A DNA stretch of 64,000 nucleotides. It comes from a virus. Position 1 is the stretch's first letter. Each line of letters begins with the position of its first letter. Shown here piece after piece: positions 312-55,597 of this stretch. A program made the position numbers and the translations under genes. The stretch lies in IMG/VR virus record IMGVR_UViG_3300037245_003639, one strand, 5' to 3'. Below the pieces are notes generated by a model that was not told where the DNA came from, made no database searches, and was given only the letters and a program-made list of their open reading frames with translations.

Positions 312-577
312 TACCCTTCTACACTCCTATTAATCTGGCGATATATCCCTCGAATAAAATCAAATATCTCTTGATTATCCTGTTCGAATTGGGCGCTCTC
401 TCGCTCAGACATCTTCAAATTGCCATCCTCATCTTTCACGTCCTGATGCAGGAAAGGTCCAGGAACAAAACTTGCAGTCTTGCCTATGTCAACTTTGCCT
501 TCAAGACTGTTTATAACAGCCTGGCGGCGCTGGAGCTTCTGAATCACTTTGTCGATGTTTTTGATACCTTTTATCAT
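311..577 (-). CDS. hypothetical protein
   Basis: 88-aa ORF in minus-strand gene block; stop overlaps next start. Confidence 0.4.
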   Translation of the reverse strand: MIKGIKNIDKVIQKLQRRQAVINSLEGKVDIGKTASFVPGPFLHQDVKDEDGNLKMSERESAQFEQDNQEIFDFIRGIYRQINRSVEG

Positions 578-1317
578 GTCGGTTTACTCAGATCTCGTTC
601 AGTAGTGTTATATCCACGATCTCTATGAGCATATGTGTCATCAAGCCATGGATTACCAAAGCGGTCTCCAATCCTTTGTTGACAATACAGAATAATTTTG
701 CCGTTCAAAATGTCATTCAGACGGCCCAGGGCTATGTTGCGCATCTCTTGGCCATATTCCGAAACATTAGGTTCATTTTGGGCCGCGAAATATTTGTCGT
801 ATATGAAAGCTGCTGCGAAACGAGCAGAAATCTCGTTGACAGGATACGGATAAGCTATCCGAAAGACTCTTGCCCCCGCATCAAAGAAAGTGAGAATAGG
901 ATCTAACGTGGTAATGCTGTTCTGGTCAATAATCGTAGCAACGATATGAACTTCCTCAACCCCTGTATCTTCATCTCGGAGAATAATCTCCTCACCGGGG
1001 TTTAGGTTGTGAGTCGTGCTCGTCTCAACTATCTGGTTGTATTCACTGATAGCTGAATCAAGCTCCCATTCCCCACTAACACATTTTACCAGAGGAGTTT
1101 TGTATAATTGTGAAATGCTGCCATCGATGCGACTGTCTGACAACGAAATATAATACTCAACCACCTCATCAGGTATCCTATTGACACCAACAGGGTTATC
1201 GGGATTCGCTGCGGGGATGTTGATTAGATTTATTTTATCCCCGGTTTGGTCGGGCCGAGCACTAGTCACGGCCTGCGGTAGAATAAGATCGACCTCGATC
1301 ACGGATGCATAGCCCAT
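574..1317 (-). CDS. hypothetical protein
   Basis: 247-aa ORF, no recognisable motif. Confidence 0.55.
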   Translation of the reverse strand: MGYASVIEVDLILPQAVTSARPDQTGDKINLINIPAANPDNPVGVNRIPDEVVEYYISLSDSRIDGSISQLYKTPLVKCVSGEWELDSAISEYNQIVETSTTHNLNPGEEIILRDEDTGVEEVHIVATIIDQNSITTLDPILTFFDAGARVFRIAYPYPVNEISARFAAAFIYDKYFAAQNEPNVSEYGQEMRNIALGRLNDILNGKIILYCQQRIGDRFGNPWLDDTYAHRDRGYNTTERDLSKPT

Positions 1318-1340
1318 TATTGTCCCTCGAAGAATTGCTC

Positions 1341-2456
1341 TTATTTATTCTTGGCAGTCTTCGGGGCTTTGTCCTGTTGGTTCTTGCTCTTATTCTCAAC
1401 TGCCAGTGATTTGATCAAACAACCATTAGACACCGCATACAGGGGATTTTCGGCCAAACGAGCGCTCTTCACTTTGAAGGGCAAGTCCACAGATTTGAGC
1501 ACTGCGTTAAATTTTTCCATGAAGCCAGGCACGCTGGCAGTCCCTCCTGCCACAATAACTTCCAGCGGAGAATCTATCTGGTTCTCAAGCTCATTGAATT
1601 TTTGAGCAAAATTCCGCAGAGCATGCTCAATCATGTTCTGATAAAAGATCTTCAAAGCTGCCTGACGCATATCAGACATATCCACATTGTTTAGGTCAAA
1701 GTTCTTTTCTTTGTAGCGAGTAATCACGGACATATCCACGCCAGCAACCTTGGCCGCTTCGCGGTCAATCCAGTCGCCCGAACGAGCTATGGAAAAACTA
1801 ATCAACGGCATTTGCCTGTAAGCAAAACAAACATTGCACATTCCAGCCCCAAAGGAAAAGGCAATTCCTGTAAATTTAGCCTCACCATTAGGTTCATTTT
1901 CATCTGGCATCGTTGGCTGCTCGCTGAAGATAATGGCCATCGCTTCCGGAATGCATTCGATAGAATACCCCAGTCCCTGCAAAAAACTCGTCAGCATAGT
2001 CTTGTGAAACATTACAGACAGATTGCTATCGATTGGATCTCCAGGAGAACAAAAACACAAAGTCTCATCAGGCTGGTTTGGCTTACCCAATAGATTCTCG
2101 ATGAGTTTTTGAATGATGGCTACACTGAGCTTTTCCTCGCTGGTATTCAGGATACCATTCTGCATTGGGCGCCGAAGTTCACTTATTTTGGTTGCGATTA
2201 GATTTTCGTTCGTCGAACTGGATTTTATTGTAAGAAGGTTTTTGAGTTTGATAGCATCCTCGCCAAGTATGTAAAAGTCATCATCATACTTGGCATATGC
2301 CCAGTTGTTTTCTTTGAGAGTTTCCTCGGTATCGTCAGTGGTAGCAGCATTGAGGAAAACGTTGCGTTCAACAGTAAAAGCACTGCCCCCACCCGCTATA
2401 TCGTCTACTTCGCTTTTGACGAGAAACATGGTCCCGATATCAAGGCCCTTAGCCAT
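1341..2456 (-). CDS. actin-like ATPase (ASKHA superfamily, ParM/MreB/Hsp70-like)
   Basis: N-terminal phosphate-1 motif GLDIGTMFLVK and C-terminal VIVAGGTASVPGF adenosine/phosphate-2 motif. Confidence 0.6.
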   Translation of the reverse strand: MAKGLDIGTMFLVKSEVDDIAGGGSAFTVERNVFLNAATTDDTEETLKENNWAYAKYDDDFYILGEDAIKLKNLLTIKSSSTNENLIATKISELRRPMQNGILNTSEEKLSVAIIQKLIENLLGKPNQPDETLCFCSPGDPIDSNLSVMFHKTMLTSFLQGLGYSIECIPEAMAIIFSEQPTMPDENEPNGEAKFTGIAFSFGAGMCNVCFAYRQMPLISFSIARSGDWIDREAAKVAGVDMSVITRYKEKNFDLNNVDMSDMRQAALKIFYQNMIEHALRNFAQKFNELENQIDSPLEVIVAGGTASVPGFMEKFNAVLKSVDLPFKVKSARLAENPLYAVSNGCLIKSLAVENKSKNQQDKAPKTAKNK

Positions 2457-2466
2457 AATTCACTCC

Positions 2467-3075
2467 TTAGTCAAGTTCATTAGCCAAATCACTAGCACTC
2501 TTTTTGTTTACAATGCGAATAGGTTTGGCCTTATTTTGCCCACCAGTTTCAATTCCCTCCGAAATCTTCCGAATCGATTCCTGCGATATTTCAGCAAACT
2601 GCTTTGGATCAATAGGTAAATCGGCGTTTTCTGATTTCTTTGGTCCTGCAATCTGGATGCTATTAATCTGATCTCTTATCGAAGAAACCAGTCCACCCAT
2701 ATTGTTTACAATGGCCTTTTGAATTGTATGTTCAATATCAAGATGAGGCTGATCTTGTAATTCCTCTGCTACTGCTTGTTTGATGAGCCTGCTCAATTGG
2801 GCTTCATCTATTTTTTGCACTGTGGTCTTTTCTATGACCTGTGGCACAGGTTGAACAGCAGGTTTATCTGCTTGTATTATACTGTGTCGTGTTAGTGCCA
2901 ATCTGCGCTGAGCTATCGCTTTTTTCAGATCGAAACTCCCATCTATGGAGTTTCTGTCGGTGACTAATTCCAGATCCAAAATCTTACGCGGACCAATTTC
3001 GACCCGCAAGTCAGACAGAATGATTGTCCTGGTTGTAAGATTATGAACAATAAACATGCTAATGACCGACCCCAA
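2467..3075 (-). CDS. hypothetical protein
   Basis: 202-aa ORF; start uncertain. Confidence 0.45.
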   Translation of the reverse strand: MGSVISMFIVHNLTTRTIILSDLRVEIGPRKILDLELVTDRNSIDGSFDLKKAIAQRRLALTRHSIIQADKPAVQPVPQVIEKTTVQKIDEAQLSRLIKQAVAEELQDQPHLDIEHTIQKAIVNNMGGLVSSIRDQINSIQIAGPKKSENADLPIDPKQFAEISQESIRKISEGIETGGQNKAKPIRIVNKKSASDLANELD

Positions 3076-3286
3076 TCCGAGGTAATGGAGGAGGCATATC
3101 TTTGCCGAAAAACATCTCGTTCATATGTTTGCATATACTACAAAGATAGTAGACCTTACTCTCTCTAAAGTTAAACTCTATACTGGCTTTTTCTGCGTCT
3201 CGGTTATTACATTTTCCGCAAACACAACTTATCTCGTTGACCCCGATTTCAGCGGTTCCTTCGATACGTATTGTCCCTATAGCCAT
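3059..3286 (-). CDS. small zinc-ribbon protein
   Basis: two CxxC pairs (CVCGKC ... CSICKH) in 75 aa. Confidence 0.4.
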   Translation of the reverse strand: MAIGTIRIEGTAEIGVNEISCVCGKCNNRDAEKASIEFNFRESKVYYLCSICKHMNEMFFGKDMPPPLPRIGVGH

Positions 3287-3314
3287 TTCTCGTCTCCTTA
3301 GAGTTCATTATACA

Positions 3315-4364
3315 TCAAAGAGACAATCCGAGAACATCAAAGACAATGGTCATGGGGTTTAGAATAGTCGTACTATCCGAGCCTGCAAATAACAACCCTA
3401 CTAGGTTATTGTTCGTATCTAGAACCGCAGAGCCGGAATCCCCACCGGCACTCATGGCTCCTGCTACAATCTGTTCATCAAATTGAGCAATTTTACCCGC
3501 TCCATACTGGACACTCACGGTAGCATCGATCAACATGACCTCACCAGTAGTGTATTTGGTAGTACGTCCATACTTCTGAAGAGGCATGCCAAGCTCTGCT
3601 TCAATCACTCCAACAGGCTTTCCTATTTGAACGATATCTTCATTGACGGGCTCGATTGGGTCCGCTAATGCAGCATCCATCTTATTAGCCTCTTCAGATG
3701 TAGTAACTGCAATTAGACGATGTTTGCGGCCCAGGCTTTTGGCAGCGATATTGGCAGCCCCCGCCGTTGCTTTAGCGATTGGACAAGTAGGAGGGTTGCC
3801 AGGAGGAGTTCCTTCCCCTCCGAATACAATGGGAACAAACTCGGCGAGATGAGCGATCAGGTCTGCTGACGATCCCCCGTCATATACGCCTGGCTGATAG
3901 ATCTCATCGCCAATTTCGGCATCGTTACTGTTCGCCAAGACATGGTTGTTGCTAAGAATGTAACTTAGTCCTTCTTTCTTGACCACACAACCGAACGTAC
4001 CAGCAGTAATGTTTTTGTGACCAATCGAAATACCAGGCATCGCTGGACGATGTTTTTGAGTTGGGTCAAATTCCGTCGCCGCGGCAGCCAGAGCGGCTCT
4101 TTTCTTTTTCTTTTTGTTTTGAGCTACAATATTGTTAGTCTCGATGACATCTGTGCCAATGCCTTCTAGGGTCGGTGGTATCTGATCCTTCTTCGCTAAT
4201 GTTTGCATGCTCAGTTTTTTAGTGACTCCGAAGACAATAACCAATTCATCGGTTTTCTGACCATCCTTGATTTTGTAACCGTAGCCGATGATGTTGACAT
4301 TGGCTTTCTTCAACATCGCTCTGCGGTGTTTTCGAATTGCTTTACGGGCTGTTTTGCGATCCAT
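3315..4364 (-). CDS. trypsin-like (S1) serine peptidase with basic N-terminal extension
   Basis: SNNHVLA His region, GDSGSAV catalytic Ser motif near C-terminus; K-rich linker. Confidence 0.65.
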   Translation of the reverse strand: MDRKTARKAIRKHRRAMLKKANVNIIGYGYKIKDGQKTDELVIVFGVTKKLSMQTLAKKDQIPPTLEGIGTDVIETNNIVAQNKKKKKRAALAAAATEFDPTQKHRPAMPGISIGHKNITAGTFGCVVKKEGLSYILSNNHVLANSNDAEIGDEIYQPGVYDGGSSADLIAHLAEFVPIVFGGEGTPPGNPPTCPIAKATAGAANIAAKSLGRKHRLIAVTTSEEANKMDAALADPIEPVNEDIVQIGKPVGVIEAELGMPLQKYGRTTKYTTGEVMLIDATVSVQYGAGKIAQFDEQIVAGAMSAGGDSGSAVLDTNNNLVGLLFAGSDSTTILNPMTIVFDVLGLSL

Positions 4365-5121
4365 GGTTGCCTCCCTCTCTCTGTAATGTTAATTCTTGTT
4401 GACGAGCTTCGTATCTCTCTTCAATCCTCCGGACTAACTCATGTCTAACGATTGACGCTTCTGTCAGTTGAATAATTCCGATATCATCAATCCCTTCCAA
4501 GAGTTGCATCGCATCGGATAAGCCGTTCTTACCTTGGATGTCAGTTTGACGGATATCTCCACAAATAATCATCTTAGAGTCTTCGCCTAATCGTGTTAAA
4601 AGCATCCTCACCTGATCAGGCGTTGAGTTCTGCATTTCGTCGCATATTATGAACGATTTGCGGAATGTAACACCCCGCATATAAGCCAACGGAATAATGC
4701 GGATAGACGAACCTTTTCCATTACCACTGTTGCCATTACCACTGTTGCCATTCCCATTTTTCATCAGTTTATTCATCGTTTCGACAGGAACCACCTGCGA
4801 CATAGCATCGTAAATAGGCATCAGATACGGGTTGATTTTGTCGATCATATCACCAGGCAGAAACCCTAATTTCTCGCCCGCTGCCTCGATAACAGGTCTG
4901 GTGAGAACTAACTTTTCAAACTTATCCTTAAAGAGTTGTTGTAGTCCATAGGCAACAGCTAGGAATGTTTTCCCAGTCCCCGCTGGGCCTGTGACGAAGG
5001 TTATAGTTCTGTGGCTGATGGCTCGAAGTAGAATTTTCTGTTCATCGGTTTTAGCTGAAACGATGATCTTAAGACCATCCAAAATCTCTGACGGGTCTAC
5101 TGAATTGTGTCTCTTTGCCAT
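4342..5121 (-). CDS. phoH: PhoH-like ATPase
   Basis: Walker A GPAGTGKTFLA, Walker B FIICDEMQN, overall PhoH architecture; contains GNGNSGNGNSGNGKG repeat insertion. Confidence 0.8.
   Translation of the reverse strand: MAKRHNSVDPSEILDGLKIIVSAKTDEQKILLRAISHRTITFVTGPAGTGKTFLAVAYGLQQLFKDKFEKLVLTRPVIEAAGEKLGFLPGDMIDKINPYLMPIYDAMSQVVPVETMNKLMKNGNGNSGNGNSGNGKGSSIRIIPLAYMRGVTFRKSFIICDEMQNSTPDQVRMLLTRLGEDSKMIICGDIRQTDIQGKNGLSDAMQLLEGIDDIGIIQLTEASIVRHELVRRIEERYEARQQELTLQREGGNHGSQNSP
4719..4760. repeat. tandem 15-bp repeat (CCATTACCACTGTTG x ~2.8) inside phoH-like gene
   Basis: direct reading of sequence; encodes Gly/Asn/Ser loop. Confidence 0.7.
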
Positions 5122-10497: not shown

Positions 10498-11192
10498 GAT
10501 TGTGTCCTGGAGGGTTCACTGTGTTTTTCATGCCAATCCACGGCTTTATCATAATCATAATAATAGAATACAGTTATCTGTACATCTAGTTTGCCGGGTT
10601 CTATTTCTACTTCCCTTGACCCACAAACAAAAAAACCACTTCGCTTCGACTTGCCATTTAGGCGGTAGAGTAGTTTGTAGATTCCGTCTGGTGGTTGGTG
10701 GTGGAAACTAACGCAAACCGTTTTCCTATCGTAATGTTCTATTTTTATAGTGGGTTTTTCCGTTGCAAGTTCTTTTACACACAAATACTTATCGGACTTA
10801 TCTAAAAGATTAAGTTCTTCATCCGGCAAACACAAATATAACTGTACAGATTCTTTGCCATCATCAGAGACCAACATGCATTCTCGTTCTAAAAAAAACG
10901 AACTAGGAATTAAACCCCAATTTGAGATCCGCAACTGTACCAATCTATCGACATGCCCTTGGAGATATCTTTTTCCTTGCAATTTCTGACCAGCAAATTC
11001 TAGTCGTTTCCAAGAATACAGCGTGCTCCAAATCAATAGAAATATCACACCAGCGAATACAGTGCTGAATACAGTGCTGAATACACTTTTGATAATCGGG
11101 CATGAATACAAAAAACCCAATATTTTCGGGCAATCTGGCGATAAAAAGAACATGCACAAAGCTATCACCACTAGCCACCAATATTTACTCAT
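10494..11192 (-). CDS. hypothetical membrane protein
   Basis: two hydrophobic N-terminal helices; internal SVFSTVFSTVF repeat. Confidence 0.5.
   Translation of the reverse strand: MSKYWWLVVIALCMFFLSPDCPKILGFLYSCPIIKSVFSTVFSTVFAGVIFLLIWSTLYSWKRLEFAGQKLQGKRYLQGHVDRLVQLRISNWGLIPSSFFLERECMLVSDDGKESVQLYLCLPDEELNLLDKSDKYLCVKELATEKPTIKIEHYDRKTVCVSFHHQPPDGIYKLLYRLNGKSKRSGFFVCGSREVEIEPGKLDVQITVFYYYDYDKAVDWHEKHSEPSRTQS
11055..11085. repeat. tandem 12-bp repeat (GAATACAGTGCT x2.6)
   Basis: seen directly; within membrane-protein gene. Confidence 0.7.
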
Positions 11193-12126
11193 AATTCATC
11201 ACCTTGTATTTCATGCTTGGAATTATACTCGGACGAATCAGGTCAAAAAGCTTAGGGGTCTCGGTGGTCGGGAAATAAACCCGAAGAAATTTGTTCCTTT
11301 TCTGTGGTTTGGGAGAGATGTTGTATCTCTCCGAGAACCAATCACATATCATGTCAATCTCATCACTTGTAAATGAATCAGTGCATAACTTCGCACCTGG
11401 CTGGGCATTCCACCCTTTTTTGATAAACCTGTCCCCCCAATCTGTCGTTCCGTCGTCCATATACCAAACCGCTACTGAAAATGCTGTCAGTTCATCCAGA
11501 ATGGCCTGAGTGATAACCTTCTTGCCATCAGGATAGAAAGCTCGGATTATTGTCTCTACATCAGTGTTGGCATTAGTGTAAAACCTGACATTCGTATACT
11601 CAGCATCATATCTTTTGTCATAGTAAGTCTCATCCTGAAGCGACTTCAACGATACATGCTCCTGCAACTCAGCGAACTTCCAGAGCAGATATTCACGTTG
11701 TTTAGCAGACTGCTTCATCTTGATAGACGAAGGTGACATCTTGCCGCAATCGCCCATCAGAGAGCCATAAATCAACTCCTTCTGACGTTGAGTGAGCGGT
11801 TTCTCGGTCTTCTTGCGATTGATAAACTTGGCGCCCAACCTTGGAATGTCCAAGTGTTCTCTAAGGAAACCGATGTAATCTTTGGAGATGTTGTATTTTG
11901 CTGCAATCTCAAACAGGGACATGCCACTCAAATAGTCCGACCGAAAGTTCGCCTCTGTGACATGATCAAAGAAGCCCTGATTCAAAGCCGACAAAAATTG
12001 GACATGGTTCTTAGAGACATCCAGCAGTTTCGGCATTCGCTTTACATGCATGCCTTCTGCTTTATGCTGTTTGAATTGCTCCAAAGTGAGACGACCACGC
12101 TTACGGTGTGATGGAATAACGCTCAT
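11185..12126 (-). CDS. LAGLIDADG homing endonuclease (two-motif, with N-terminal HTH)
   Basis: motifs LIYGSLMGDCG and VAVWYMDDGT; own TATAAT and AAGGAG immediately upstream. Confidence 0.8.
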   Translation of the reverse strand: MSVIPSHRKRGRLTLEQFKQHKAEGMHVKRMPKLLDVSKNHVQFLSALNQGFFDHVTEANFRSDYLSGMSLFEIAAKYNISKDYIGFLREHLDIPRLGAKFINRKKTEKPLTQRQKELIYGSLMGDCGKMSPSSIKMKQSAKQREYLLWKFAELQEHVSLKSLQDETYYDKRYDAEYTNVRFYTNANTDVETIIRAFYPDGKKVITQAILDELTAFSVAVWYMDDGTTDWGDRFIKKGWNAQPGAKLCTDSFTSDEIDMICDWFSERYNISPKPQKRNKFLRVYFPTTETPKLFDLIRPSIIPSMKYKVMNYE

Positions 12127-24884: not shown

Positions 24885-26645
24885 ATGCTAGTTGTGAAAA
24901 GTTATCAACTGAACAAAACAGCGGCCCTACCTGCTGATATTTCTTTGCCTCTGGATGGTAAAGAGGAGCAAATCTTCTCTTTTATCAGACGGGCCATAGG
25001 TTCTATGCCCAAAGCTCCTGTGGCTCGGGTCGCCGGGGGCTGGGTGCGTGATAAATTACTGGGAAAACCGTCGAAAGACATTGATATTACAGTCGAAGGA
25101 ACCACAGGAGTTGAATTTGCAAATGCTCTCAGACAATATGCCATCGAAACCCAAGGAACAAAACAGAACATAGTTAGTCGGGTCAAAGACACAGAAGCGC
25201 GTCCCGAGCAAATCAAGAACTTGGCTGTTGCATTCCTGCGTATCTTTGATCAGGATATGGAAATTCTTGATCTGCGAGCAATCGAGTTCTATGAGAAGGG
25301 CAATCGAAATCCCACTGTGATTCGTCTCGAAGAGTTGAAAGCCATTGCACAACAACAGGGAATTCCGAGTTTCGTCAAAGACAAAGCTCCCCATTTGTTA
25401 TCTGCCATTAGCAAATTACCACATGGTAACAGCAACCATCCCAATGAAGTTCTTAAAACCCTTGACGCTCATCGACGAGATCTTACGATAAACTCGCTTT
25501 TCTACAACATCAACACAACGGAGATTGAGGATTTTACAGGTGAGGGATATGACGATTTGCTGACAATGACATTGCGGACTCCTATTGAACCCGTGAAAAC
25601 TTTTCAAGATGACCCTTTGCGAGTTCTTAGGATTCTGCGTTTCCACAGTCGTTACCCGAATTCCAAGATAGCCCCCGAAATTATTCAAGCAATGGCAGAT
25701 GAAGAAGTACAACATCAGATTACTCGTCGTCTTATCAAAGCAGATGAAACCGCAGGCATCGTCCCTGAAAGGACTGCTGAGGAATTACGCAAGCTAATGA
25801 TGGGAGCCCAGCCCGAAGCCGCTCTGCGGGTGATGCATGAAACGGGCCTGCTCCAGAAGATGTTTAATCTGCCAAAGGAATTTCACCCTCTGAATATGGA
25901 CCAAATGAGTTCATATCACAGTCTATCGGTTATTGAGCATATTCTAAATGTAGTAAAGAATGTCAATAACCTAGCCCAGGAATTCAATCTGTCTGGCCAG
26001 GAGAGGATGTTTCTAAATCTGGCCTCTCTATTCCACGACCTTGGGAAACTTGATCCTCGATCACATAAAGCAAAACCAGATGGAACAAGAGGCTATTCAG
26101 GAAGTGAAGCTGATGATTCACTGACCCATGAGCAATCCAGCTCAGATATGTGGGAAAGATTCGCGAGGGCTCTGAGGCTCAGTGATAAAGAACGGACAAC
26201 CATCCAAGATGTTGTTTCGGGGCACATGCGTCCACATGCTCACTTCGAGAATGAGATGCAATCTGCATCGGATAGAACATTACGACGTTATATGCGTAAA
26301 AACCCCCTATGGAAGTTGCAATATATCCTTGCCATGGGTGATGCTATGTCCAAAGCAGATGAGCCCGAGCCGCAGGCAGCAGACCCATATCGAGCAACCT
26401 ATGAGTACATGCAATCCCCAGGTTTTACCCCTCCACCGAAAAGTACTGAAAGACCTTTAGTAGATGGGCATCGAATCATCGAATTGGTTGGAGCCCATCC
26501 AAAGTCAGGTTACATTGAAGATGTCAAAGAGGAAATCAATCGCCTCCGCGATGAGAATCCTGCCTTAACTATTCAAGAAGCAGAACAGTTTATTCTCCAA
26601 ATGAAGGCCGATGGAGCATTCGCCCATCTTCCTCCTCTCCGTTAG
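24885..26645 (+). CDS. cca: CCA-adding tRNA nucleotidyltransferase with HD domain
   Basis: GGWVRDKLLG...DIDITVEG head motif, RRDLTINSLFYN, DPLRVLRILRF, HD motif LFHDLGK. Confidence 0.85.
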   Translation: MLVVKSYQLNKTAALPADISLPLDGKEEQIFSFIRRAIGSMPKAPVARVAGGWVRDKLLGKPSKDIDITVEGTTGVEFANALRQYAIETQGTKQNIVSRVKDTEARPEQIKNLAVAFLRIFDQDMEILDLRAIEFYEKGNRNPTVIRLEELKAIAQQQGIPSFVKDKAPHLLSAISKLPHGNSNHPNEVLKTLDAHRRDLTINSLFYNINTTEIEDFTGEGYDDLLTMTLRTPIEPVKTFQDDPLRVLRILRFHSRYPNSKIAPEIIQAMADEEVQHQITRRLIKADETAGIVPERTAEELRKLMMGAQPEAALRVMHETGLLQKMFNLPKEFHPLNMDQMSSYHSLSVIEHILNVVKNVNNLAQEFNLSGQERMFLNLASLFHDLGKLDPRSHKAKPDGTRGYSGSEADDSLTHEQSSSDMWERFARALRLSDKERTTIQDVVSGHMRPHAHFENEMQSASDRTLRRYMRKNPLWKLQYILAMGDAMSKADEPEPQAADPYRATYEYMQSPGFTPPPKSTERPLVDGHRIIELVGAHPKSGYIEDVKEEINRLRDENPALTIQEAEQFILQMKADGAFAHLPPLR

Positions 26646-34808: not shown

Positions 34809-34883
34809 GGCTGGATAGCCCAATTTGGCAGAGGCATACGGTTCAGAGCCGTAAAGTTATGGGTTCGACTCCCATTCCAGCCA
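34809..34883 (+). tRNA. tRNA, class I (5-nt variable loop), anticodon CAG (decodes Leu CUG)
   Basis: acceptor GGCTGGA/TCCAGCC, anticodon arm TACGG-TTCAGAG-CCGTA, T-arm ATGGG-TTCGACT-CCCAT, A73. Confidence 0.55.
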
Positions 34884-34945
34884 TTGCTAGGCTGCTCAGG
34901 GTGGAGCAGCGAGAGACTTGTTTCAAACTCTCCACCCACAGCTTT

Positions 34946-35018
34946 GCCAAGGTGGCCCAACGGCAGAGGCGTCCGTCTCAAAAGCGGAATGTTGTGGGTT
35001 CGACTCCCACTCTTGGCA
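34946..35018 (+). tRNA. tRNA, class I, anticodon CAA (decodes Leu UUG)
   Basis: acceptor GCCAAGG/TCTTGGC, anticodon arm TCCGT-CTCAAAA-GCGGA, T-arm GTGGG-TTCGACT-CCCAC, A73. Confidence 0.55.
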
Positions 35019-35030
35019 TTGAAAATTAAA

Positions 35031-35104
35031 GCCCAGGTAGCCCAATTGGCAGCGGCTCGTGGTTTAGGTCCACGGAGTTGGGGGTTCGAATCCCTCCCTG
35101 GGTA
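35031..35104 (+). tRNA. tRNA, class I, anticodon UAG (decodes Leu CUA)
   Basis: acceptor GCCCAGG/CCTGGGT, anticodon arm CGTGG-TTTAGGT-CCACG, T-loop TTCGAAT, A73. Confidence 0.55.
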
Positions 35105-35233
35105 TTTAGTCATATTGGACAGGAGCGCAACTACTGTCCATGATTGAGCATAAGTGGCATTGCGTAGGTGCTTATGCAAATGACTAGACCGAGGGTGCAT
35201 TGCACTAATCACTCTAGAGGCTCCTCGGCCGAA

Positions 35234-35307
35234 GCGGCGGTAGCCCAATGGCAGCAGGCACAGCACTTAAAATGCTGACAGTGCGGGTTCGAATCCCGCC
35301 CGCCGTA
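35234..35307 (+). tRNA. tRNA, class I, anticodon UAA (decodes Leu UUA)
   Basis: acceptor GCGGCGG/CCGCCGT, anticodon arm CAGCA-CTTAAAA-TGCTG, T-arm GCGGG-TTCGAAT-CCCGC, A73. Confidence 0.55.
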
Positions 35308-35593
35308 TTGGAGAAAATCATGACTCACTAGAACCGGAAAAACCGAAGATCAGTTTTCATGCAGATTGCGTGTTCCATTGTGGTAAAGATGATATACACC
35401 ATTACTGGCAGGAACCCGGAGCACCATTGGGTGAAAAACAAACTTGGCGAGTAGTCTGTGAGCATGGAACAGTTAGAGGCGCCTTTGAAAACGAACTCGT
35501 GGCAGAAATATTTGCCGCATCGATGAATTGGGCATATACCCACGGAGTTTGGAATCGCCCCTAACAACACTGTTCTCTGATAAATGAATAAAC

Positions 35594-35676
35594 GTGGACG
35601 TGGTGAAATGGCAGACACGCCAGCTTGAGGGGCTGGTCCGGGCAACCGGGTGGAGGTTCGACTCCTCTCGTCCGCA
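35594..35676 (+). tRNA. tRNA-Leu (GAG), canonical class II with long variable arm
   Basis: anticodon arm CCAGC-TTGAGGG-GCTGG, variable arm CCGG-GCAA-CCGG, T-arm GGAGG-TTCGACT-CCTCT, A73. Confidence 0.7.
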
Positions 35677-35687
35677 TTGTGACCCCT

Positions 35688-35706
35688 CCTGAGATAGTAT
35701 CTCAGG
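35688..35706 (+). other. perfect 9-bp hairpin (CCTGAGATA-G-TATCTCAGG) after tRNA-Leu; likely processing or termination signal
   Basis: seen directly. Confidence 0.4.
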
Positions 35707-35753
35707 ATCGACGCTTGACAGCGTTTCGGGTGTGTGGTAACATACACCCACTT

Positions 35754-35835
35754 GGGTGAGTTGAGCAATTGGCTGCTCAGCGGGCTGTAAACCCGCCGTC
35801 GTGAGGCATTGTGGGTTCGAATCCCTCCTCACCCA
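35754..35835 (+). tRNA. tRNA-Tyr (GUA), class II
   Basis: acceptor GGGTGAG/CTCACCC, anticodon arm GCGGG-CTGTAAA-CCCGC, long variable region, T-loop TTCGAAT; preceded by hairpin GGGTGTGT-GGTAAC-ATACACCC. Confidence 0.65.
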
Positions 35836-35879
35836 TTCCAGGTATAATCCACATGGAGTAAACCATGCTGGAGTAACCA

Positions 35880-36644
35880 ATGGCTAAGTTTCCAGATTTC
35901 GTTGTAGTCGGACAAACGAAAACCTGTACCACTTCCTTATGGTACAACCTCGATAATCATCCCGACATCACTATGTGTTCTCAGGAGAATGATTCTGAAA
36001 TCCTTACGGGAACAGAGATTACGTTTTGGGGAAGCCGTAATTTTGGCAAAGGGATCGAATGGTATAAGTCATTGTTTCAAGGAAAGGTCGCAGGAGAGAA
36101 AAGCCCAGGTTATATAAACAGGGCACAATGTTTCAAACAAATGTCTCGACATATGCCTGACGTAAAGTTGGTTCTTTGCATCCGCAATCCTGTGGATAGA
36201 GCATATTCTCAGTTTCAGATGAGACAACGCAGGAACCCTGTTACAAAAGCTCCTAGCTATCAAGAATTAGAACAGTCGTCAGAGAAAGGTCGATACTATA
36301 CGCTAATCACAAATAACGTCTTGCCTTACTTCCCTAGGGGGCAGTTGCACCTATGCGTTGCCGAGTGGATGCGTCATGACCCGAATGCTGAAATACAGAA
36401 GGTTTACGATTTTTTGGGCATCGGACACCATTCTCTTCCAAATGTAAGATTGGAATCTTCAATCGCTCATGGCAAAGGGAAACCCAAGGTAGAAGTAAAA
36501 CGGTCTGACGATTATAAAGAGTGGCATAATGAATATCCAAAGCTTCCGGCCCGCATGAGAGCGAAGTTACTGAAACTCTTTGAGAAGGACAATAACAGAT
36601 TGTTCAGTTTTCTAGGTTATGAGATTCCAGAATGGAGCAAATAA
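35880..36644 (+). CDS. sulfotransferase (PAPS-dependent, Sulfotransfer_1/3-like)
   Basis: 5'-PSB-like VVVGQTKTCTTSLW and 3'-PB-like CIRNPVDRAYSQF; TATAAT and GGAG upstream. Confidence 0.7.
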   Translation: MAKFPDFVVVGQTKTCTTSLWYNLDNHPDITMCSQENDSEILTGTEITFWGSRNFGKGIEWYKSLFQGKVAGEKSPGYINRAQCFKQMSRHMPDVKLVLCIRNPVDRAYSQFQMRQRRNPVTKAPSYQELEQSSEKGRYYTLITNNVLPYFPRGQLHLCVAEWMRHDPNAEIQKVYDFLGIGHHSLPNVRLESSIAHGKGKPKVEVKRSDDYKEWHNEYPKLPARMRAKLLKLFEKDNNRLFSFLGYEIPEWSK

Positions 36645-36699
36645 AGTGCGTAAAAGCAAGTTTCGGGTGTGTGGTAACATACACCCATCTGGGTGAGTT

Positions 36700-36780
36700 G
36701 GGCAGGTGGTGTGCCCAGTAGGCTGTAAACCTACCGTTTCGGCATTGGTGGTTCGATTCCACTCTCACCCATTCCTAGTG
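36700..36780 (+). tRNA. tRNA-Tyr (GUA), second diverged copy
   Basis: acceptor GGGTGAG/CTCACCC, anticodon arm GTAGG-CTGTAAA-CCTAC, T-arm GGTGG-TTCGATT-CCACT; same upstream hairpin motif. Confidence 0.65.
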
Positions 36781-36850
36781 TGATTTAACGTAAGTGGATC
36801 ACCTTGGGTGTCCAGCGAATAGTCGCTAAGACATTTATTAGGAAAACAGA

Positions 36851-37111
36851 ATGAAAGAAATTTCTGAAGAACAAGTTGAGTTTGTAAAATGCTCAGGCCG
36901 AAGTGGTTTCTCAATCAGGAGAGCCCTGATTGAAGTGGAAAAATCGGTTGTGGAATGGTGGAAAATGTACTATCATTCAGGTAATGGGCCTGGTGTCTCT
37001 GGGAGTTGTGACTTCGTTGCTCATGCCCCAACAAGAGAACTGGCTCTTGAGCAAGCTCGCAAAATAAAGAATGGGCCATACACCCATTTGTTTCTCAAAC
37101 TGGAGAGCTGA
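36851..37111 (+). CDS. hypothetical protein
   Basis: 86-aa ORF. Confidence 0.4.
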   Translation: MKEISEEQVEFVKCSGRSGFSIRRALIEVEKSVVEWWKMYYHSGNGPGVSGSCDFVAHAPTRELALEQARKIKNGPYTHLFLKLES

Positions 37112-37116
37112 AACCA

Positions 37117-37429
37117 TGCGTAAAAGCAAGAACATTAAACAACTGAAGGTGAAAGCTGCCAATGAGTATCGCAAGGGCAACAGGAAGGAGGCTTACAAAT
37201 TGTGGGAAAAAGCCCGAATTGAACGACTTATTCAACAAGAGAAGATGTAATGAGGTGGACTGGTACCAAACAATCGAGAATCCGTTGGCGACGAGCAGTT
37301 AGAAATCATCGAACAGAGCTTCAAGATAAACGTGATTCCTTTCATCGCTCAAAGGCAAAATCAGGGCATCGATATGTCGAGGAACTTATCTGGCCGTTAG
37401 CCTTACGGCCTAAAAAAAGACTTCGTTAG
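37117..37429 (+). other. two very basic small ORFs (44 aa and 59 aa)
   Basis: MRKSKNIKQLKVKAANEYRKGNRKEAYKLWEKARIERLIQQEKM (37117..37251) and MRWTGTKQSRIRWRRAVRNHRTELQDKRDSFHRSKAKSGHRYVEELIWPLALRPKKRLR (37250..37429); below ORF-track cutoff. Confidence 0.2.
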
Positions 37430-37496
37430 GTCATCCAGCGGCTCTGGACCTGGGTCTCCAAAACCCGGAGGATCGGCTCGACCCCGATATGGCCTG
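37428..37496 (+). tRNA. tRNA-like element, anticodon-loop CCA (Trp-like) with compact non-canonical D-arm
   Basis: acceptor AGGTCAT/ATGGCCT, anticodon arm TGGGT-CTCCAAA-ACCCG, T-arm ATCGG-CTCGACC-CCGAT; only 69 nt, D region 16 nt. Confidence 0.3.
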
Positions 37497-37535
37497 TTGA
37501 GAGGATGCGGCCTAGCAGTAATTGCTTACATACTC

Positions 37536-37620
37536 TTTATGTGGGTTCGAGTCCCATCATTGCAGAGATTCTGCGATGTAGCCTAACTGGCAAAGGCAAC
37601 TGTCTGCAAAACAGTGAAGT
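37536..37620 (+). tRNA. split/circularly permuted tRNA-like locus: 3' half (T-arm + acceptor 3' strand + G73) followed 6 nt later by 5' half (acceptor 5' strand, D-arm, anticodon arm with GCA)
   Basis: 3' half TTATGTGGGTTCGAGTCCCATCATTGCAG almost identical to 3' half of tRNA at 34809; 5' half TGCGATG-TA-GCCTAACTGGCAAAGGC-A-ACTGT-CTGCAAA-ACAGT; acceptor halves complementary (7/7 with G-U). Confidence 0.4.
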
Positions 37621-37660
37621 GAGAAAACAGCAATGCAAACTTTCGCATCCTTCTCTTTTT

Positions 37661-37731
37661 GAGCGCGTACCCAAGTGGCTAGGGAGCGGATTGCAAACCC
37701 GCCTACGTCGGTTCGACTCCGACCGTGCTCT
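37661..37731 (+). tRNA. tRNA-Cys (GCA)
   Basis: acceptor GAGCGCG/CGTGCTC, anticodon loop TTGCAAA, T-arm GTCGG-TTCGACT-CCGAC, U73 discriminator typical of Cys. Confidence 0.65.
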
Positions 37732-37735
37732 TGTT

Positions 37736-37809
37736 GGGGCCGTGGTGCAATTGGTTAGCACATCTGCCTGTCACGCAGAAGGTTGCCGGTTCGAGTCCGG
37801 TCGGTCTCG
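37736..37809 (+). tRNA. tRNA-Asp (GUC)
   Basis: acceptor GGGGCCG/CGGTCTC, anticodon arm TCTGC-CTGTCAC-GCAGA, T-arm GCCGG-TTCGAGT-CCGGT, G73. Confidence 0.7.
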
Positions 37810-37812
37810 TTT

Positions 37813-37887
37813 GGGCTATTGGAAGAGTCTGGAGTCTTCGCCTGCTTGTCACGCAGGAGATCACGAGTTCAAATCTCGTATAGCCCG
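37813..37887 (+). tRNA. tRNA-Asp (GUC), second diverged copy
   Basis: acceptor GGGCTAT/ATAGCCC, D-stem GAAG/CTTC, anticodon arm CCTGC-TTGTCAC-GCAGG, T-arm ACGAG-TTCAAAT-CTCGT, G73. Confidence 0.65.
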
Positions 37888-37890
37888 TTT

Positions 37891-37984
37891 GCCACAGTAG
37901 TTTAAGGACTAAGGCAAAACGTCGAGCCCGTCTTCTTAATAGAGCGGGTGCTCGATCATGCGAGTTCGAGTCTCGTCTGTGGCT
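37891..37984 (+). tRNA. 94-nt tRNA-like element with canonical acceptor and T-arm but atypical body (long bulged hairpin with 14-nt loop); identity unassigned
   Basis: acceptor GCCACAG/CTGTGGC, T-arm GCGAG-TTCGAGT-CTCGT; internal hairpin TCGAGCCCG-(TCTTCTTAATAGAG)-CGGGTGCTCGA. Confidence 0.35.
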
Positions 37985-39277: not shown

Positions 39278-40171
39278 ATGCAATCGATTCTACGCTATCC
39301 TGGAGGCAAGACTAAGCGCAAAGTGCGTAGTCTAATTCTAAGTCATGCTCCTCACGGCTATCAAGAATATAGAGAACCTTTCGTCGGTGGTGGAGGTGTC
39401 TTTTTCTCAATCGGAGATGATCATAAACGCTGGATAAACGATCTAAATGAGGGGCTTGTCGATGTCTATCTGGCTCTACGAGACAGACCTGACGAGTTTA
39501 TCAAACGCTGCAAATCCGTGCAGCCGAGACAACCGGGGGAGCCCGATGTCTATCCGACTGCAAACAGTTCAGGAAAGAAATACAACAAACGTTTGAAAGA
39601 ACAGTTTGATGATCTGAAATTCAATAACGATGAGGATCAGGCTTTTCGTTATTTCTTTATCAACAGAACTGTCTGGGCGGGTCGAGTAGATTATGAACGC
39701 AAGTCCCGCTTATATTTCTCTAATCCCGAAGGATGGGATATCGTTGCCACTCAACGAATCGAAGCGGCTGCTGAACATCTCCGGAATGTCAAAGTCACTT
39801 GTGGGGATTATGAGAATTTACTCTTAGCACCAGGCAAGAATGTCTGGGTTTACTGCGATCCTCCATATATGCGCGATACGAAACTGTCAGCCACAGACAA
39901 ACTGTATGCTCATGGCTTTACCATGCAAGACCATGAAAGATTTGCGTATTTGGCCCGTAAGTCAGAGCACAAACTGTGCATTAGTTATGATGACGATCCA
40001 AAGGTGAGACAGCTATTCAAAGGATTTACGATCATTCCTCAACAATGGGTTTATTGTGGAACCTCCAACGAAGAGAAAAAGATAGGCCAGGAACTACTGA
40101 TTTTGAATTACCCAGTTCCTGCTGGGGCCATCAAAACGAAACATAAACCAAAGAAAATGGCTCAATATTAA
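39278..40171 (+). CDS. dam: DNA N6-adenine methyltransferase (Dam-like, D12 class)
   Basis: YPGGK start, FxGxG motif FVGGGGVFF, catalytic DPPY. Confidence 0.8.
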   Translation: MQSILRYPGGKTKRKVRSLILSHAPHGYQEYREPFVGGGGVFFSIGDDHKRWINDLNEGLVDVYLALRDRPDEFIKRCKSVQPRQPGEPDVYPTANSSGKKYNKRLKEQFDDLKFNNDEDQAFRYFFINRTVWAGRVDYERKSRLYFSNPEGWDIVATQRIEAAAEHLRNVKVTCGDYENLLLAPGKNVWVYCDPPYMRDTKLSATDKLYAHGFTMQDHERFAYLARKSEHKLCISYDDDPKVRQLFKGFTIIPQQWVYCGTSNEEKKIGQELLILNYPVPAGAIKTKHKPKKMAQY

Positions 40172-40174
40172 GTA

Positions 40175-40204
40175 TTGACACTGATGCTCGGAATGGAGTA
40201 TAAT
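40175..40204 (+). promoter_or_regulatory. consensus sigma70 promoter TTGACA-18-TATAAT
   Basis: read directly; predicted start ~40211 coincides with P1 5' strand. Confidence 0.65.
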
Positions 40205-40210
40205 TCGTCT

Positions 40211-40457
40211 ATCTGGGCTTCCGGCTCGTCGCTGCGGTCAGGAGTTTGACTGGTCGTAGAGGAAAGTCGGGACTGCACCGCTTAAGGTGGAAGACGAAAG
40301 TCGCTTGTACCACTGAGGCAGCAACACAAATTGTCCTAGGTGGTGAGCGGGCCAATGATGGACTGGTTGTGGCACCCTTAATAGGGCGCGGCTCTAAGGG
40401 TCGTGAGATGAATGGCGAGCTAAAACAGAATCCCGCTTATTGGAAGCCCAGATACTT
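40211..40457 (+). ncRNA. rnpB: candidate RNase P RNA (compact, ~247 nt)
   Basis: P1 ATCTGGGCTTCC (40211-22) pairs exactly with GGAAGCCCAGAT (40442-53); P4 5' strand AGAGGAAAGTCGGGACT; P4 3' strand ACAGAATCCCGCTTATTGG resembling bacterial ACAGAAcCCGGCUUAUCGG, with the bulge expected in P4. Confidence 0.6.
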
Positions 40458-40696
40458 TGGTTCACAGAAGAAGACATTTAGCCAAAGCAATCAGTTACCG
40501 TTTCTTTGGCAGTTTAGTGACGGCGATTGTTGTCTTCTTGCTTACAAATGATTTGAATATTACTTTGGCGTTCTTCGCCATCGAATCGGTTGGAAAAATA
40601 GTTCTTTACTATGTGCATGAAAGAGTTTGGTATCATGTTAGTTGGGGAATAGAACACAAAGAACACAAAGATGACAAAATGGGCTCTTCATACTGA
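40457..40696 (+). CDS. hypothetical small membrane protein
   Basis: 79-aa ORF with hydrophobic segment; start abuts RNase P RNA end. Confidence 0.3.
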   Translation: MVHRRRHLAKAISYRFFGSLVTAIVVFLLTNDLNITLAFFAIESVGKIVLYYVHERVWYHVSWGIEHKEHKDDKMGSSY

Positions 40697-54335: not shown

Positions 54336-55039
54336 GTTACCCCGACTATGATACCTATAACATGCTTTACGCTCGTTACTTGGATTCCACCAAAACAAAG
54401 CGAATGATGGCTTGGGCAGGCCCTCTAAAACCTAAGAGAGTGCTGGATGCCTGCGGAGGCGGAGGAGAAATCACTTTAGCCGCAATAGAAGATGCCGCTC
54501 TGGTTGTGTATGTGGACCAGGAAGAGAAAATGCTGTCTCCCAGGCTAAAAGGGATACGACGCGAAGCAGCAGCCCGAGGCTATACAGGTGAGGTTCCACG
54601 GAATCTTATGTTTTCAATTGAACCCATTCAACTCTTCCTTTCGAGCCCGCCTCCTAATTTCACAACCGGGCTAGGGGGGTTCGATGTTGTCTTCTGCCAA
54701 CAGGCCATCAACTATTGGCTCAATCCTGAAACAGCGAAACAACTCGCTGCCCTTATGAAGTCTGGCGGGGTTTTCATCTTCAATACCTTTGCCAATAGGC
54801 CTCCAAAAGAACCTTTTGTAAGACAGTATGGACTTAATGGCCGACATTACGTGGAAACCAGTTGGATGGTAGAAGATGATATGGTTCATCATGTTCAAGT
54901 TGCAAGTGGTCTTTCACCACATACCACAATATTCAAGTGGATGTCAGCCGATACTCTCAAAACAATATTGAGCCCTCACTTCCATGTCACTTACAAAAAG
55001 ATGGATCAGGCTTTATATGTGAAATGCACAAAGATCTGA
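54332..55039 (+). CDS. class I SAM-dependent methyltransferase
   Basis: motif I VLDACGGGGEIT; GTG start overlapping upstream TGA. Confidence 0.6.
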   Translation: MSYPDYDTYNMLYARYLDSTKTKRMMAWAGPLKPKRVLDACGGGGEITLAAIEDAALVVYVDQEEKMLSPRLKGIRREAAARGYTGEVPRNLMFSIEPIQLFLSSPPPNFTTGLGGFDVVFCQQAINYWLNPETAKQLAALMKSGGVFIFNTFANRPPKEPFVRQYGLNGRHYVETSWMVEDDMVHHVQVASGLSPHTTIFKWMSADTLKTILSPHFHVTYKKMDQALYVKCTKI

Positions 55040-55597
55040 ATCTGCAATCTGCTGTAATACCTGAGGATAAAGCTCTCGTTCTGCCATCATCACTCGCTGA
55101 CCCAAACTGTCAGGAGTATCGCCAACCAAAACAAAAACAGCAGTTTGAGCCAGAATAGACCCATGATCATACTCATTGTCAGCAAAATGAACTGTGCAGC
55201 CACTCTGCGTTTCACCTGCGGATAAGACAGCTTCATGAACATGATGTCCATACATGCCCTTGCCACCATACTTCGGCAGCAAAGCGGGATGTATGTTTAG
55301 CACCCGACCTTCATAACGATCGGGAATCTTCCACAAGTGAAGGAATCCAGCCATCACAACCAAATCGACTTGAGATACATCCAAAGCCTGAACAATCATC
55401 TCCGAGAAATCAGGCAATTCTGGATAGATGATTTGGACAAGCAGGTCATGTCGGTTGGCTATTTCCACGCCACGAACACGCTTCCGAGAGCTAATCACAA
55501 GAGAGATGTGGATGTTTGATAAACGTCCATCTGCGATACGGTCACATAAGTTCTCAAGAGTAGAACCGCCACCAGAAATGAGGACTGCTATATTCAT
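55013..55597 (-). CDS. purN: phosphoribosylglycinamide formyltransferase-like (PurN/Fmt family)
   Basis: MNIAVLISGGGSTLENL, HPALLPKYGG, catalytic His/Asp region HVHEA...GCTVHFADNEYDHG. Confidence 0.8.
   Translation of the reverse strand: MNIAVLISGGGSTLENLCDRIADGRLSNIHISLVISSRKRVRGVEIANRHDLLVQIIYPELPDFSEMIVQALDVSQVDLVVMAGFLHLWKIPDRYEGRVLNIHPALLPKYGGKGMYGHHVHEAVLSAGETQSGCTVHFADNEYDHGSILAQTAVFVLVGDTPDSLGQRVMMAERELYPQVLQQIADSDLCAFHI

Follow-up and report, generated by a model that had tools for sequence, protein, structure and literature searches.

Ribonuclease P (RNase P) RNA counts as a universal housekeeping ribozyme of cells. It is a textbook case that the host enzyme cleaves the tRNA precursors of phages such as T4 (PMC11143913). 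What, in that setting, is an RNase P RNA doing in viral DNA? The question is raised by IMG/VR record IMGVR_UViG_3300037245_003639, analyzed here as one stretch of 64,000 nucleotides (the window), in which a sequence-only reading, made without database searches, had proposed a compact RNase P RNA-like gene behind a sigma-70 promoter. A permissive local Rfam scan bore this out, locating a miniature homologue of type A RNase P RNA, 243-245 nucleotides (nt) long, at 40210..40454 on the plus strand. Its match to the covariance model RF00010 runs end to end (model positions 1-367; 71.5 bits, E 1.2e-21), this type A model scores best among the models of the RNase P clan, and R1, a family covariance model built in this work, gives 184 bits. 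The minimum free energy (MFE) z-score of the RNA is -3.6. We regard it as almost certain that this RNA is genuinely homologous to RNase P RNA and has the fold described below.

The 341 nt that include the gene and its promoter are 100% identical in assemblies of other samples (Logan SRR11832402 and JGI 3300043172), and the RNA sequence is identical in loci L076 and L077. Because the same sequence appears in two independent assemblies, an assembly artefact is excluded. The promoter consists of TTGACA (40175-40180), a spacer of 18 nt and TATAAT (40199-40204), as the sequence-only reading had it, and is the sole perfect TTGACA-N16-18-TATAAT on either strand of the window, where 0.04 would be expected by chance. 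Transcription is predicted to start ~7 nt past the -10 element, at ~40211, which is the first nucleotides of helix P1.

Fold of the RNA and its conservation

All helices of the window RNA were checked base by base (Table 1). The exact 12-base-pair (bp) P1 that had been proposed, ATCTGGGCTTCC (40211-40222) with GGAAGCCCAGAT (40442-40453), stands and gains one further pair to reach 13 bp, and the first estimate of RNA length, ~247 nt, needed slight correction. The two P4 strands and their bulge were also recognized correctly: they form eight standard pairs and covary in relatives. Four base pairs of P3 are common to the family, and three of them covary. Conserved region (CR) V is aligned with AGAUGAAUG and ACAGAACCCGGCUUA of RF00010 and is conserved in all relatives, and the CR-IV match at 40318-40324 holds what we take to be the A248-equivalent adenosines. 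By its position and conservation, GGU is the putative L15 motif that would pair with the 3'-CCA of tRNA. A plain MFE fold recovered P1, P3 and parts of the core and mispaired P5, P6 and P7, and was not relied on.

Table 1. Features of the RNA gene and of the associated tRNA genes in the window; covariation and pairing percentages refer to the 11 RNAs of alignment A8.
Feature	Window position	Strand	Evidence
Whole RNA gene	40210..40454	+	RF00010 71.5 bits; R1 184 bits
Sigma-70-type promoter, TTGACA-18 nt-TATAAT	40175..40204	+	12/12 consensus; predicted function
P1, 13 bp	40210..40222 / 40442..40454	+	13/13 standard pairs; 10/11 modelled pairs covary
P2, 8 bp	40223..40230 / 40414..40421	+	8/8 pairs; 6/8 covary
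P3 hairpin, 10-bp stem, 8-nt loop	40232..40241 / 40250..40259	+	10/10 pairs
Joining region (J) 3/4 and P4 5' strand (AGGA-AAGUCGGGA), CR-I	40260..40272	+	aligns to GAGGAAAGUCCGGGC core of RF00010
P4, 8 pairs, U40267 bulged	AAGUCGGGA 40264-40272 / UCCCGCUU 40431-40438	+	8/8 standard pairs
P5 (5' strand CUGC)	40273..40276 / 40318..40321	+	4/4 pairs; 4/4 covary
P6 pseudoknot CCGCU/AGCGG into P17 loop	40278..40282 / 40346..40350	+	5/5 pairs
Specificity-domain remnant, P7 stem GGUGG/CCACU	40286..40290 / 40310..40314	+	98% paired
Hairpin GAC-GAAA-GUC inside P7	40293..40302	+	100% paired; 3/3 pairs covary
P5 3' strand and J5/15 (GCAG-CAA), CR-IV	40318..40324	+	aligns to GGAGCAA of RF00010
P15	40325-28 / 40368-71	+	pairs verified; P15-P17 95-100% paired, covarying
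P16	40333-36 / 40360-63	+	pairs verified
P17	40339-41 / 40351-53	+	pairs verified
GGU at the L15-motif position	40365..40367	+	invariant in 11/11
29-nt insert at the P18 position	40375..40403	+	hairpins CCCU-UAAU-AGGG and CGCGGCUC-UAA-GGGUCGUG
J18/2 (UGAGAUGAAU), P2 3' strand, J2/4 (AAAACAGAA) and P4 3' strand (UCCCGCUU), CR-V	40404..40438	+	
11 tRNA genes, presumed substrates	34809..37984	+	ARAGORN and Rfam; 3' ends and spacers read from sequence
CCA-adding enzyme (tRNA nucleotidyltransferase)	24885..26645	+	phrog_2244 E 9e-40; Pfam PolyA_pol, PolyA_pol_RNAbd, HD

What is missing is nearly the whole specificity domain (S-domain). P8-P14 and the CR-II and CR-III motifs were not found in the window RNA, in which the P5 strands are just 41 nt apart. 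The sequence-only reading had suggested a check of P1-P4 and of the P10-P12 topology; the first pair as described and the second is absent, the S-domain consisting of P7 and one hairpin. This stub (40286..40314, 29 nt) has a conserved 3' internal loop, GCUUGUA, with the family consensus G-N-U-U-G-N-A. Judged from its pairing and motifs, the window RNA is a complete type A catalytic domain (C-domain) plus a 29-nt S-domain stub.

The insert at the P18 position is a variable part of the molecule, present in the window RNA and six relatives and absent in four, and there is no P8 for it to dock to. Its second hairpin folds at -9.8 kcal/mol. The corresponding insert of Stenotrophomonas phage DLP_6 folds as two hairpins, that of locus L039a is without a convincing fold, and the others are two-hairpin by eye only.

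Covariation among relatives shows that this fold is maintained. The structure was built by hand on a four-member alignment (A3), in which 98.3% of cells were paired and 31/68 pairs had changed on both sides, compared to 29-46% paired cells and 1-3 double-changed pairs in slid controls, in which the 3' partners were moved by 1-3 columns. The model R1 was made from the nested helices only, with P4 and P6 excluded, and was used to find and align further members. Alignment A8 contains 11 distinct RNAs of the window type, seven of which were not used in deriving the structure, and its copies are divergent (37-55% G+C). In A8, 97.2% of cells are paired and 47/58 pairs have compensatory double changes, and the covariation score is 0.85 compared to 0.07-0.16 in slid controls, which were 30-47% paired. 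None of 500 shuffles reached the observed values, a count that is not a probability, as the sequences are related.

The nested helices were themselves aligned to R1, which makes the slid controls and the pseudoknots the fairer tests. Covariation in P4 and P6 is a fair test because the R1 model contained neither. P4 is 100% paired with covariation at 6/8 pairs (for example CGGGA/UCCCG, CAUCA/UGAUG and CGCGG/CCGCG), and P6 is 96% paired with covariation at 5/5 pairs, its two unpaired cells coming from DLP_6, where the alignment slipped by one column and GAGAA/UUCUC in fact pairs perfectly. P1, P2, P3, P5 and P15 are each 94-100% paired with covariation. In the single-stranded core, GAGGAA and GGU are invariant, GCAA occurs in 10/11 RNAs, and AGAUNAAUG and ACAGAA have minor variants only. 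The slid controls and the pseudoknots both decisively support the fold, and purifying selection maintains the fold and the core nucleotides.

Host genome, relatives and tRNA genes

The phage-like context suggested from the sequence was confirmed by gene content and by a contig from the same sample, which overlaps window positions 1-4429 at 99.98% identity and extends 4.5 kb further. About 2.4 kb beyond the left end of the window, this contig encodes a tail tube protein (Phage_tube_2, 47 bits, cut-off 27). Capsid and terminase genes, which the sequence-only reading had named as the markers to look for, were not found inside the 64-kb window with PHROG and Pfam, ~30 open reading frames (ORFs) having been individually examined, and the viral flank is marked by the tail tube gene. 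Because of this gene and the overall gene content, we conclude that the genome is that of a tailed phage. A few genes from the tail tube gene lies a gene for a 371-residue Volactin (actin-like) protein at 1341-2456 (minus strand), with a full-length Pfam match (E 9e-69).

The window is gene-dense, encoding PhoH, RNase H, a Dam methylase (39278-40171), MutT, NDK, DnaJ, proteases, and glycosyl- and sulfotransferases, along with many families known only from PHROG and many ORFs without a match. LAGLIDADG and HNH homing endonuclease genes are present, including the ORF at 11185-12126 (minus strand), as is a PurN-like formyltransferase (55013-55597). Such an auxiliary set, with homing endonucleases, Dam, NDK, DnaJ and a PurN-like protein, is what very large phages typically carry. 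Among the top 25 of the 53 Pfam families in the window, none was a ribosomal-protein or other housekeeping family.

Immediately downstream of the RNA, 2 nt past its 3' end, a TTG codon starts a Pfam-supported DUF2061 membrane-protein gene (40457-40696, plus strand), and no obvious terminator lies in the gap. The RNA may form the 5' portion of a longer transcript, on which DUF2061, RNase H and DnaJ are also encoded. The ORF at 40246..40551, which had been dismissed as probably spurious, most likely is so, as it overlaps the RNA and is out of frame with the DUF2061 gene.

The sequence-only reading treated such a small copy on a mobile element as an oddity, a view that does not survive the search for relatives. 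Scanning IMG/VR for the P4 5' motif returned 75 viral contigs, of which at least 20 exceed 100 kb, with distances of ~130 to 400 nt from P4 strand to P4 strand. Scans anchored on both P4 strands and on the P4 variant GAGGAAGUUC added 12 more loci, on contigs of up to 501 kb. The window architecture recurs in 10 further RNAs (L011, L318, L319, L083, L039a, L342/L345, L344/L346, L347, L343 and DLP_6, where L numbers denote our loci), and other reduced forms keep the core with different stubs (L060, L320, L321/L323, L322 and L046). The L060 RNA is only 183-189 nt long, its S-domain being a single GAAA hairpin. CR-II and CR-III are lost in RNAs of 263 nt or less, with one exception, and mostly kept in those of 267 nt or more. 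The series of sizes, from about 400 down to 183 nt, is thus a gradient of reduction and not a single oddity.

Cultured phages carry the RNA as well. It lies unannotated in Stenotrophomonas phage DLP_6 (KU682439.2:105773-106019; R1 81.6 bits, RF00010 54.7 bits), in a 258-nt gap of the tRNA cluster, and in Microbacterium phage Zooman (OK040793.1:89337-89555; RF00010 53 bits), where it occupies precisely the space that separates two tRNA-Arg genes; Microbacterium phage Big4 has the same blast match as Zooman. The 735-kb huge phage LR756501.1 has another unannotated copy (181312-181538; R1 130 bits), for which RF00010 gave no report even at E <= 0.01. The family therefore extends to dozens of large viral contigs and to no fewer than three cultured phages (DLP_6, Zooman and Big4). 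On RF00010, the scores of its compact members are 53-72 bits or less, below the gathering threshold, which is why they escaped annotation.

The leads to public phages came from relatives used as blast queries; the window RNA itself, searched by blastn against 50,697 GenBank phage records, matched nothing at E 1e-5 and gave chance matches only at E 10. Blast matches in Agrobacterium phage Atu_ph04 and Streptomyces phage LilMartin were false leads. Scans of metagenomes and genomes for a short P5-to-P5 pattern found at least 240 loci, mostly full-size bacterial RNAs that passed because J11/12 mimicked the 3' anchor, and L083 was the only compact RNA among the matches listed. In IMG/VR, no such RNA lies near relatives of the RNase H gene that neighbours the window RNA (at most 44% identity); the gene neighbourhood is therefore not conserved.

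Not all RNase P matches in IMG/VR are phage-encoded. Eight short contigs from isolate genomes (L006, L008, L023, L029, L036, L042, L051 and L055) end in an identical 353-nt full-size RNase P RNA, and look like host rnpB at the edge of a prophage or contig, not like phage genes. The 488-kb contig L039 (IMGVR_UViG_3300020429_000539) has two intact compact RNase P-like RNAs, at 1886-2115 and 2373-2620 on the minus strand, and, at ~2620-3620 on the same strand, a 5' fragment, from P1 to the P5 5' strand, that runs into a double-LAGLIDADG ORF of at least 312 residues. Copy b (1886-2115) is without a recognizable GAGGAAAGUC strand in the model alignment and is possibly degenerate.

Most of the relatives sit among tRNA genes. 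In L017, L318, L060, L083, L004, L039, L320, DLP_6 and Zooman, the RNA lies inside a same-strand tRNA array, usually 1-10 nt from tRNAs, and these arrays reach 27 tRNAs in L017 and 26 in L318. Copies that stand free each have a sigma-70-like promoter: that of L322 places the start at P1, and that of L011 lies ~16 nt upstream, after a terminator. In the window, the tRNA cluster lies 2.2 kb upstream of the RNA on the same strand. Its genes look ordinary (47-66 bits on the tRNA model), none of the 11 encodes a 3' CCA, and the four at 37661-37984 are only 1-3 nt apart. The window also encodes a CCA-adding enzyme (Table 1), whose best phage relatives, at ~25% identity, are those of huge phages including LR756501.1.

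Several further observations concern these tRNA regions. Six genes of the window cluster are for tRNA-Leu (anticodons CAG, CAA, UAG, UAA and, twice, GAG), and two tRNA-Tyr(GUA) genes (35753-35836 and 36690-36772) lie in ~82%-identical 117-nt repeats around a sulfotransferase gene. An extra, weak tRNA-like match is found at 37572-37638 (31 bits). DLP_6 encodes a transfer-messenger RNA (tmRNA) at 820-1093 of locus L339 (KU682439.2 ~102792-103065; RF01850 103.7 bits, permuted model RF04321 136.8 bits) that is absent from its GenBank annotation and from its genome paper, and L318 has a tmRNA at 6-363 (RF00023 100.8 bits). CUA-anticodon tRNAs of the amber-suppressor type, labelled Pyl by ARAGORN, occur in L342 (1739-1810, minus strand; 501-kb contig) and L344 (11265-11338, plus strand; 14 kb), both ~37% G+C and with an RNA of the GAGGAAGUUC variant, which suggests possible TAG recoding in these phages.

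Proposed function and rival explanations

We propose that the RNA is a phage-borne C-domain RNase P that probably uses host RnpA to mature the tRNAs of the phage. Transcription of the window RNA would begin at P1, driven by its strong sigma-70 promoter, and most relatives would be co-transcribed within a tRNA array, so that the cleavage that liberates the neighbouring tRNAs would liberate the ribozyme too. The RNA would assemble with RnpA of the host and remove the 5' leaders and spacers from tightly packed polycistronic precursors of phage tRNAs. Together with the phage CCA-adding enzyme, it would form a phage-carried tRNA maturation module that could keep the supply of phage tRNAs independent of host RNase P levels during infection. 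We consider this account fairly probable, and it is about as probable that the RNA acts with host RnpA as an endonuclease on the 5' side of pre-tRNAs.

The known contacts of RnpA all lie within the catalytic domain of the bacterial holoenzyme. An RnpA gene was not found by searching for ORFs with the RNR motif and by tblastn in the window, the family loci and the complete DLP_6 genome, with three bacterial RnpA sequences as tblastn queries, which a very divergent RnpA would escape. RnpA matches in the phage collection were mislabelled bacterial contigs. In phage T4, CCA addition precedes RNase P cleavage of some dimeric precursors. By analogy, the CCA-less tRNA genes, the phage CCA-adding enzyme and the GGU would fit a CCA-first order. 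The conserved internal loop of the retained P7-hairpin module may, speculatively, supply a substrate contact. Activity without an S-domain is plausible because the engineered C-domain of E. coli (Eco CP RPR) cleaves substrates and the archaeal type T RNA lacks most of its S-domain.

Several points weigh against this proposal. The score of the window RNA is below the RF00010 gathering score of 100, and a default Rfam scan of the 64-kb window at gathering thresholds reported 11 tRNAs only and no RNase P RNA, a shortfall that arises because ~125 S-domain model positions between the P5 strands are deleted. With the recognition elements for the T-loop and D-loop gone (P8-P14, CR-II and CR-III), the RNA may bind its substrates weakly and, by analogy with the engineered E. 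coli C-domain, may depend strongly on protein. A phage RnpA or another protein partner may lie outside the 64 kb and the short extensions. The window RNA stands 2.2 kb away from the tRNAs; it also adjoins a protein-coding gene and could serve as the 5' leader of that mRNA. For all family members, catalytic activity is a prediction from sequence.

Of the alternatives, the one that survives best is an active ribozyme of changed specificity, which we consider unlikely and which overlaps our proposal without excluding it. Having lost T-loop recognition, it would cut mainly non-canonical substrates, which might be the phage tmRNA precursor, phage mRNAs or operon junctions, unusual phage tRNAs that are poorly handled by host RNase P, or replacements for tRNAs destroyed by host anticodon nucleases. 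Without an S-domain, substrate selection is expected to become looser or different (PMC5839562), the conserved internal loop of the mini-S-domain suggests that some contact was retained, and tmRNAs co-occur with the RNA in L318 and DLP_6. However, the sequence points to no specific alternative substrate, and the closest and most consistent neighbours of the RNA are ordinary-looking tRNA genes with scores of 47-66 bits.

Rather less probable is a decoy or host-takeover RNA that has kept the protein-binding surface of the catalytic domain without substrate recognition, soaks up RnpA or competes with host RNase P RNA, and so depresses tRNA maturation in the host instead of acting as a catalyst. 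The near-complete loss of the S-domain, the failure to find a phage RnpA in the sequences searched, and a very strong promoter that would yield a high copy number are all in keeping with such a role. A decoy needs no intact active site, though, and the bulged-U P4, J3/4, J5/15, J18/2, J2/4 and GGU are conserved, with minor variants only in some junctions, and P6 is upheld by covariation in all 11 RNAs. The embedding of the RNA in tRNA arrays argues for a function that serves those tRNAs, and sequestering RnpA would harm the maturation of the phage's own tRNAs.

It is highly improbable that the gene is a decaying pseudogene, a fragment of host rnpB acquired by the phage and losing pieces without function. 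That large internal parts of cellular RNase P RNA are deleted in it could be read in this way, and the truncated fragment and possibly degenerate copy in L039 show that such genes do break, but 47/58 pairs are kept by compensatory change across 11 divergent copies, the same deletion architecture recurs in phages of different samples and hosts, and the window copy has a perfect promoter at the right distance and is 100% identical in independent assemblies. Least probable of all is a non-viral origin, in a reduced bacterial genome (candidate phyla radiation (CPR) or endosymbiont) with this as its only, small, housekeeping RNase P RNA: CPR RNase P RNAs are indeed diverged, without P12-P14 and P18 and below Rfam thresholds (PMC8172020), and capsid and terminase are missing from what was found in the 64-kb window, but the tail tube gene 2.4 kb beyond it, the PhoH, homing endonuclease, MutT and PHROG-only genes, the lack of a housekeeping family among the top 25 of 53 Pfam families, and relatives in the cultured phages DLP_6 and Zooman, whose genomes are complete, and in a curated 735-kb phage argue otherwise.

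Extending the proposed tRNA-maturing role from the window RNA to its family, we lean, by a narrow preference, toward the view that large tRNA-rich phages carry an undescribed class of active bacterial RNase P ribozymes, C-domain-only and 183-263 nt long, which would have arisen by stepwise S-domain loss, often lie in the tRNA arrays that they process, and make tRNA maturation partly autonomous of the host. So defined, the class covers phages from ~50 kb (one ~19-kb contig fragment) to 735 kb, including Stenotrophomonas and Microbacterium phages. To our knowledge, 183-263 nt is smaller than any cellular bacterial RNase P RNA.

If this view is right, tRNA 5' maturation joins the translation functions of large phages (tRNAs, tmRNA, CCA-adding enzyme and aminoacyl-tRNA synthetases), and the RNA would be the first RNase P RNA encoded by a virus and, on the bacterial side, the equivalent of the archaeal type T enzyme. 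The family would also be a natural experiment in which the S-domain was repeatedly removed from a type A ribozyme with P6 kept and P18 dispensable, as E. coli deletion studies predicted, and the series from 400 to 183 nt is a ready-made set for asking what the S-domain does. The cultured carriers DLP_6, Zooman and Big4 make the hypothesis directly testable. Annotation at Rfam thresholds misses these genes, so a dedicated covariance model is needed, and very small active RNase P ribozymes could serve in M1GS-type guide-sequence applications and in the in vitro processing of tRNA arrays.

Comparison with known RNase P RNAs

In the literature searched, which covered few subscription-journal papers, a phage-encoded RNase P RNA was not described, and the DLP6 genome paper, the huge-phage paper, a 2024 RNase P review and metagenomic RNase P surveys do not mention one. 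The sequence-only reading, which knew of no precedent, was close to correct in this; a partial precedent exists in two mycobacterial genomes, those of M. austroafricanum and M. sp. YC-RL4, where two further RNase P RNA homologues are found whose S-domains are altered and that have an endonuclease gene in between; horizontal transfer is suspected (Behra et al. 2022, PMC9569102). As far as descriptions can be compared, the layout of L039, with several copies and a LAGLIDADG gene, is similar. The mycobacterial copies are a chromosomal, unexplained curiosity and were not called phage genes, S-domain-less, or a family (PMC9569102); they are the nearest published precedent that we found.

Reduced cellular RNAs differ in another way. 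CPR bacteria and Mycoplasma fermentans have RNase P RNAs without P12-P14 and/or P18 that fall below Rfam thresholds (PMC8172020). These RNAs are sole housekeeping copies and, by description only, appear to keep more of the S-domain, their losses being P12-P14, P16-P18 and sometimes P15.

Helix for helix, the window RNA resembles type A RNase P RNA (rnpB, M1 RNA; RF00010) in P1-P3, the bulged-U P4, P5, P6 and P15-P17 with GGU, and it keeps the joining regions J3/4, J5/15, J18/2 and J2/4. P6 and the P16/P17 arm, the type A hallmarks that type B lacks, are both present. It differs in its length of ~243 nt instead of ~330-400, in the absence of P8-P14 and CR-II/CR-III, in a canonical P18 that is absent or replaced by two short hairpins, and in being encoded by a phage and not a cellular chromosome. 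Because its catalytic domain has the type A features while the S-domain is missing and the score stays under the gathering value, the window RNA is a new structural variant of type A, not a standard member. Type B (RF00011), with its P5.1, P10.1 and P15.1, does not describe it, since it has P6, P16 and P17 and is without those extra helices.

The archaeal type T RNA offers the closest natural parallel in shape, with a conventional catalytic domain and most of the S-domain absent, in a natural RNase P that works nonetheless (PMC3579882). Type T has a 3-bp P2, a 2-nt linker between P5 and P15 and a shortened P15, and works with the proteins Pop5, Rpp30 and Rpp29 (PMC3579882). Like the phage RNA, it has lost most of its S-domain and was overlooked by the existing covariance model until a dedicated one was made. 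In contrast, the phage RNA has an 8-bp P2, a 3-nt CAA linker, P6, P16/P17 with GGU and bacterial junctions, and so is not type T; because of these bacterial features, its S-domain reduction is independent of that in type T.

The phage RNAs are also matched by a molecule made in the laboratory. The engineered C-domain of E. coli (Eco CP RPR) cleaves substrates without an S-domain at reduced efficiency, and for that efficiency it needs a P6-like pairing while P18 is dispensable (Mao et al. 2018, PMC5839562). The phage family follows the same logic, always keeping P6 and missing the P18-position insert in 4/11 members. Unlike the construct, the phage RNAs are natural, are under selection, and retain a small, conserved module of P7 and one hairpin.

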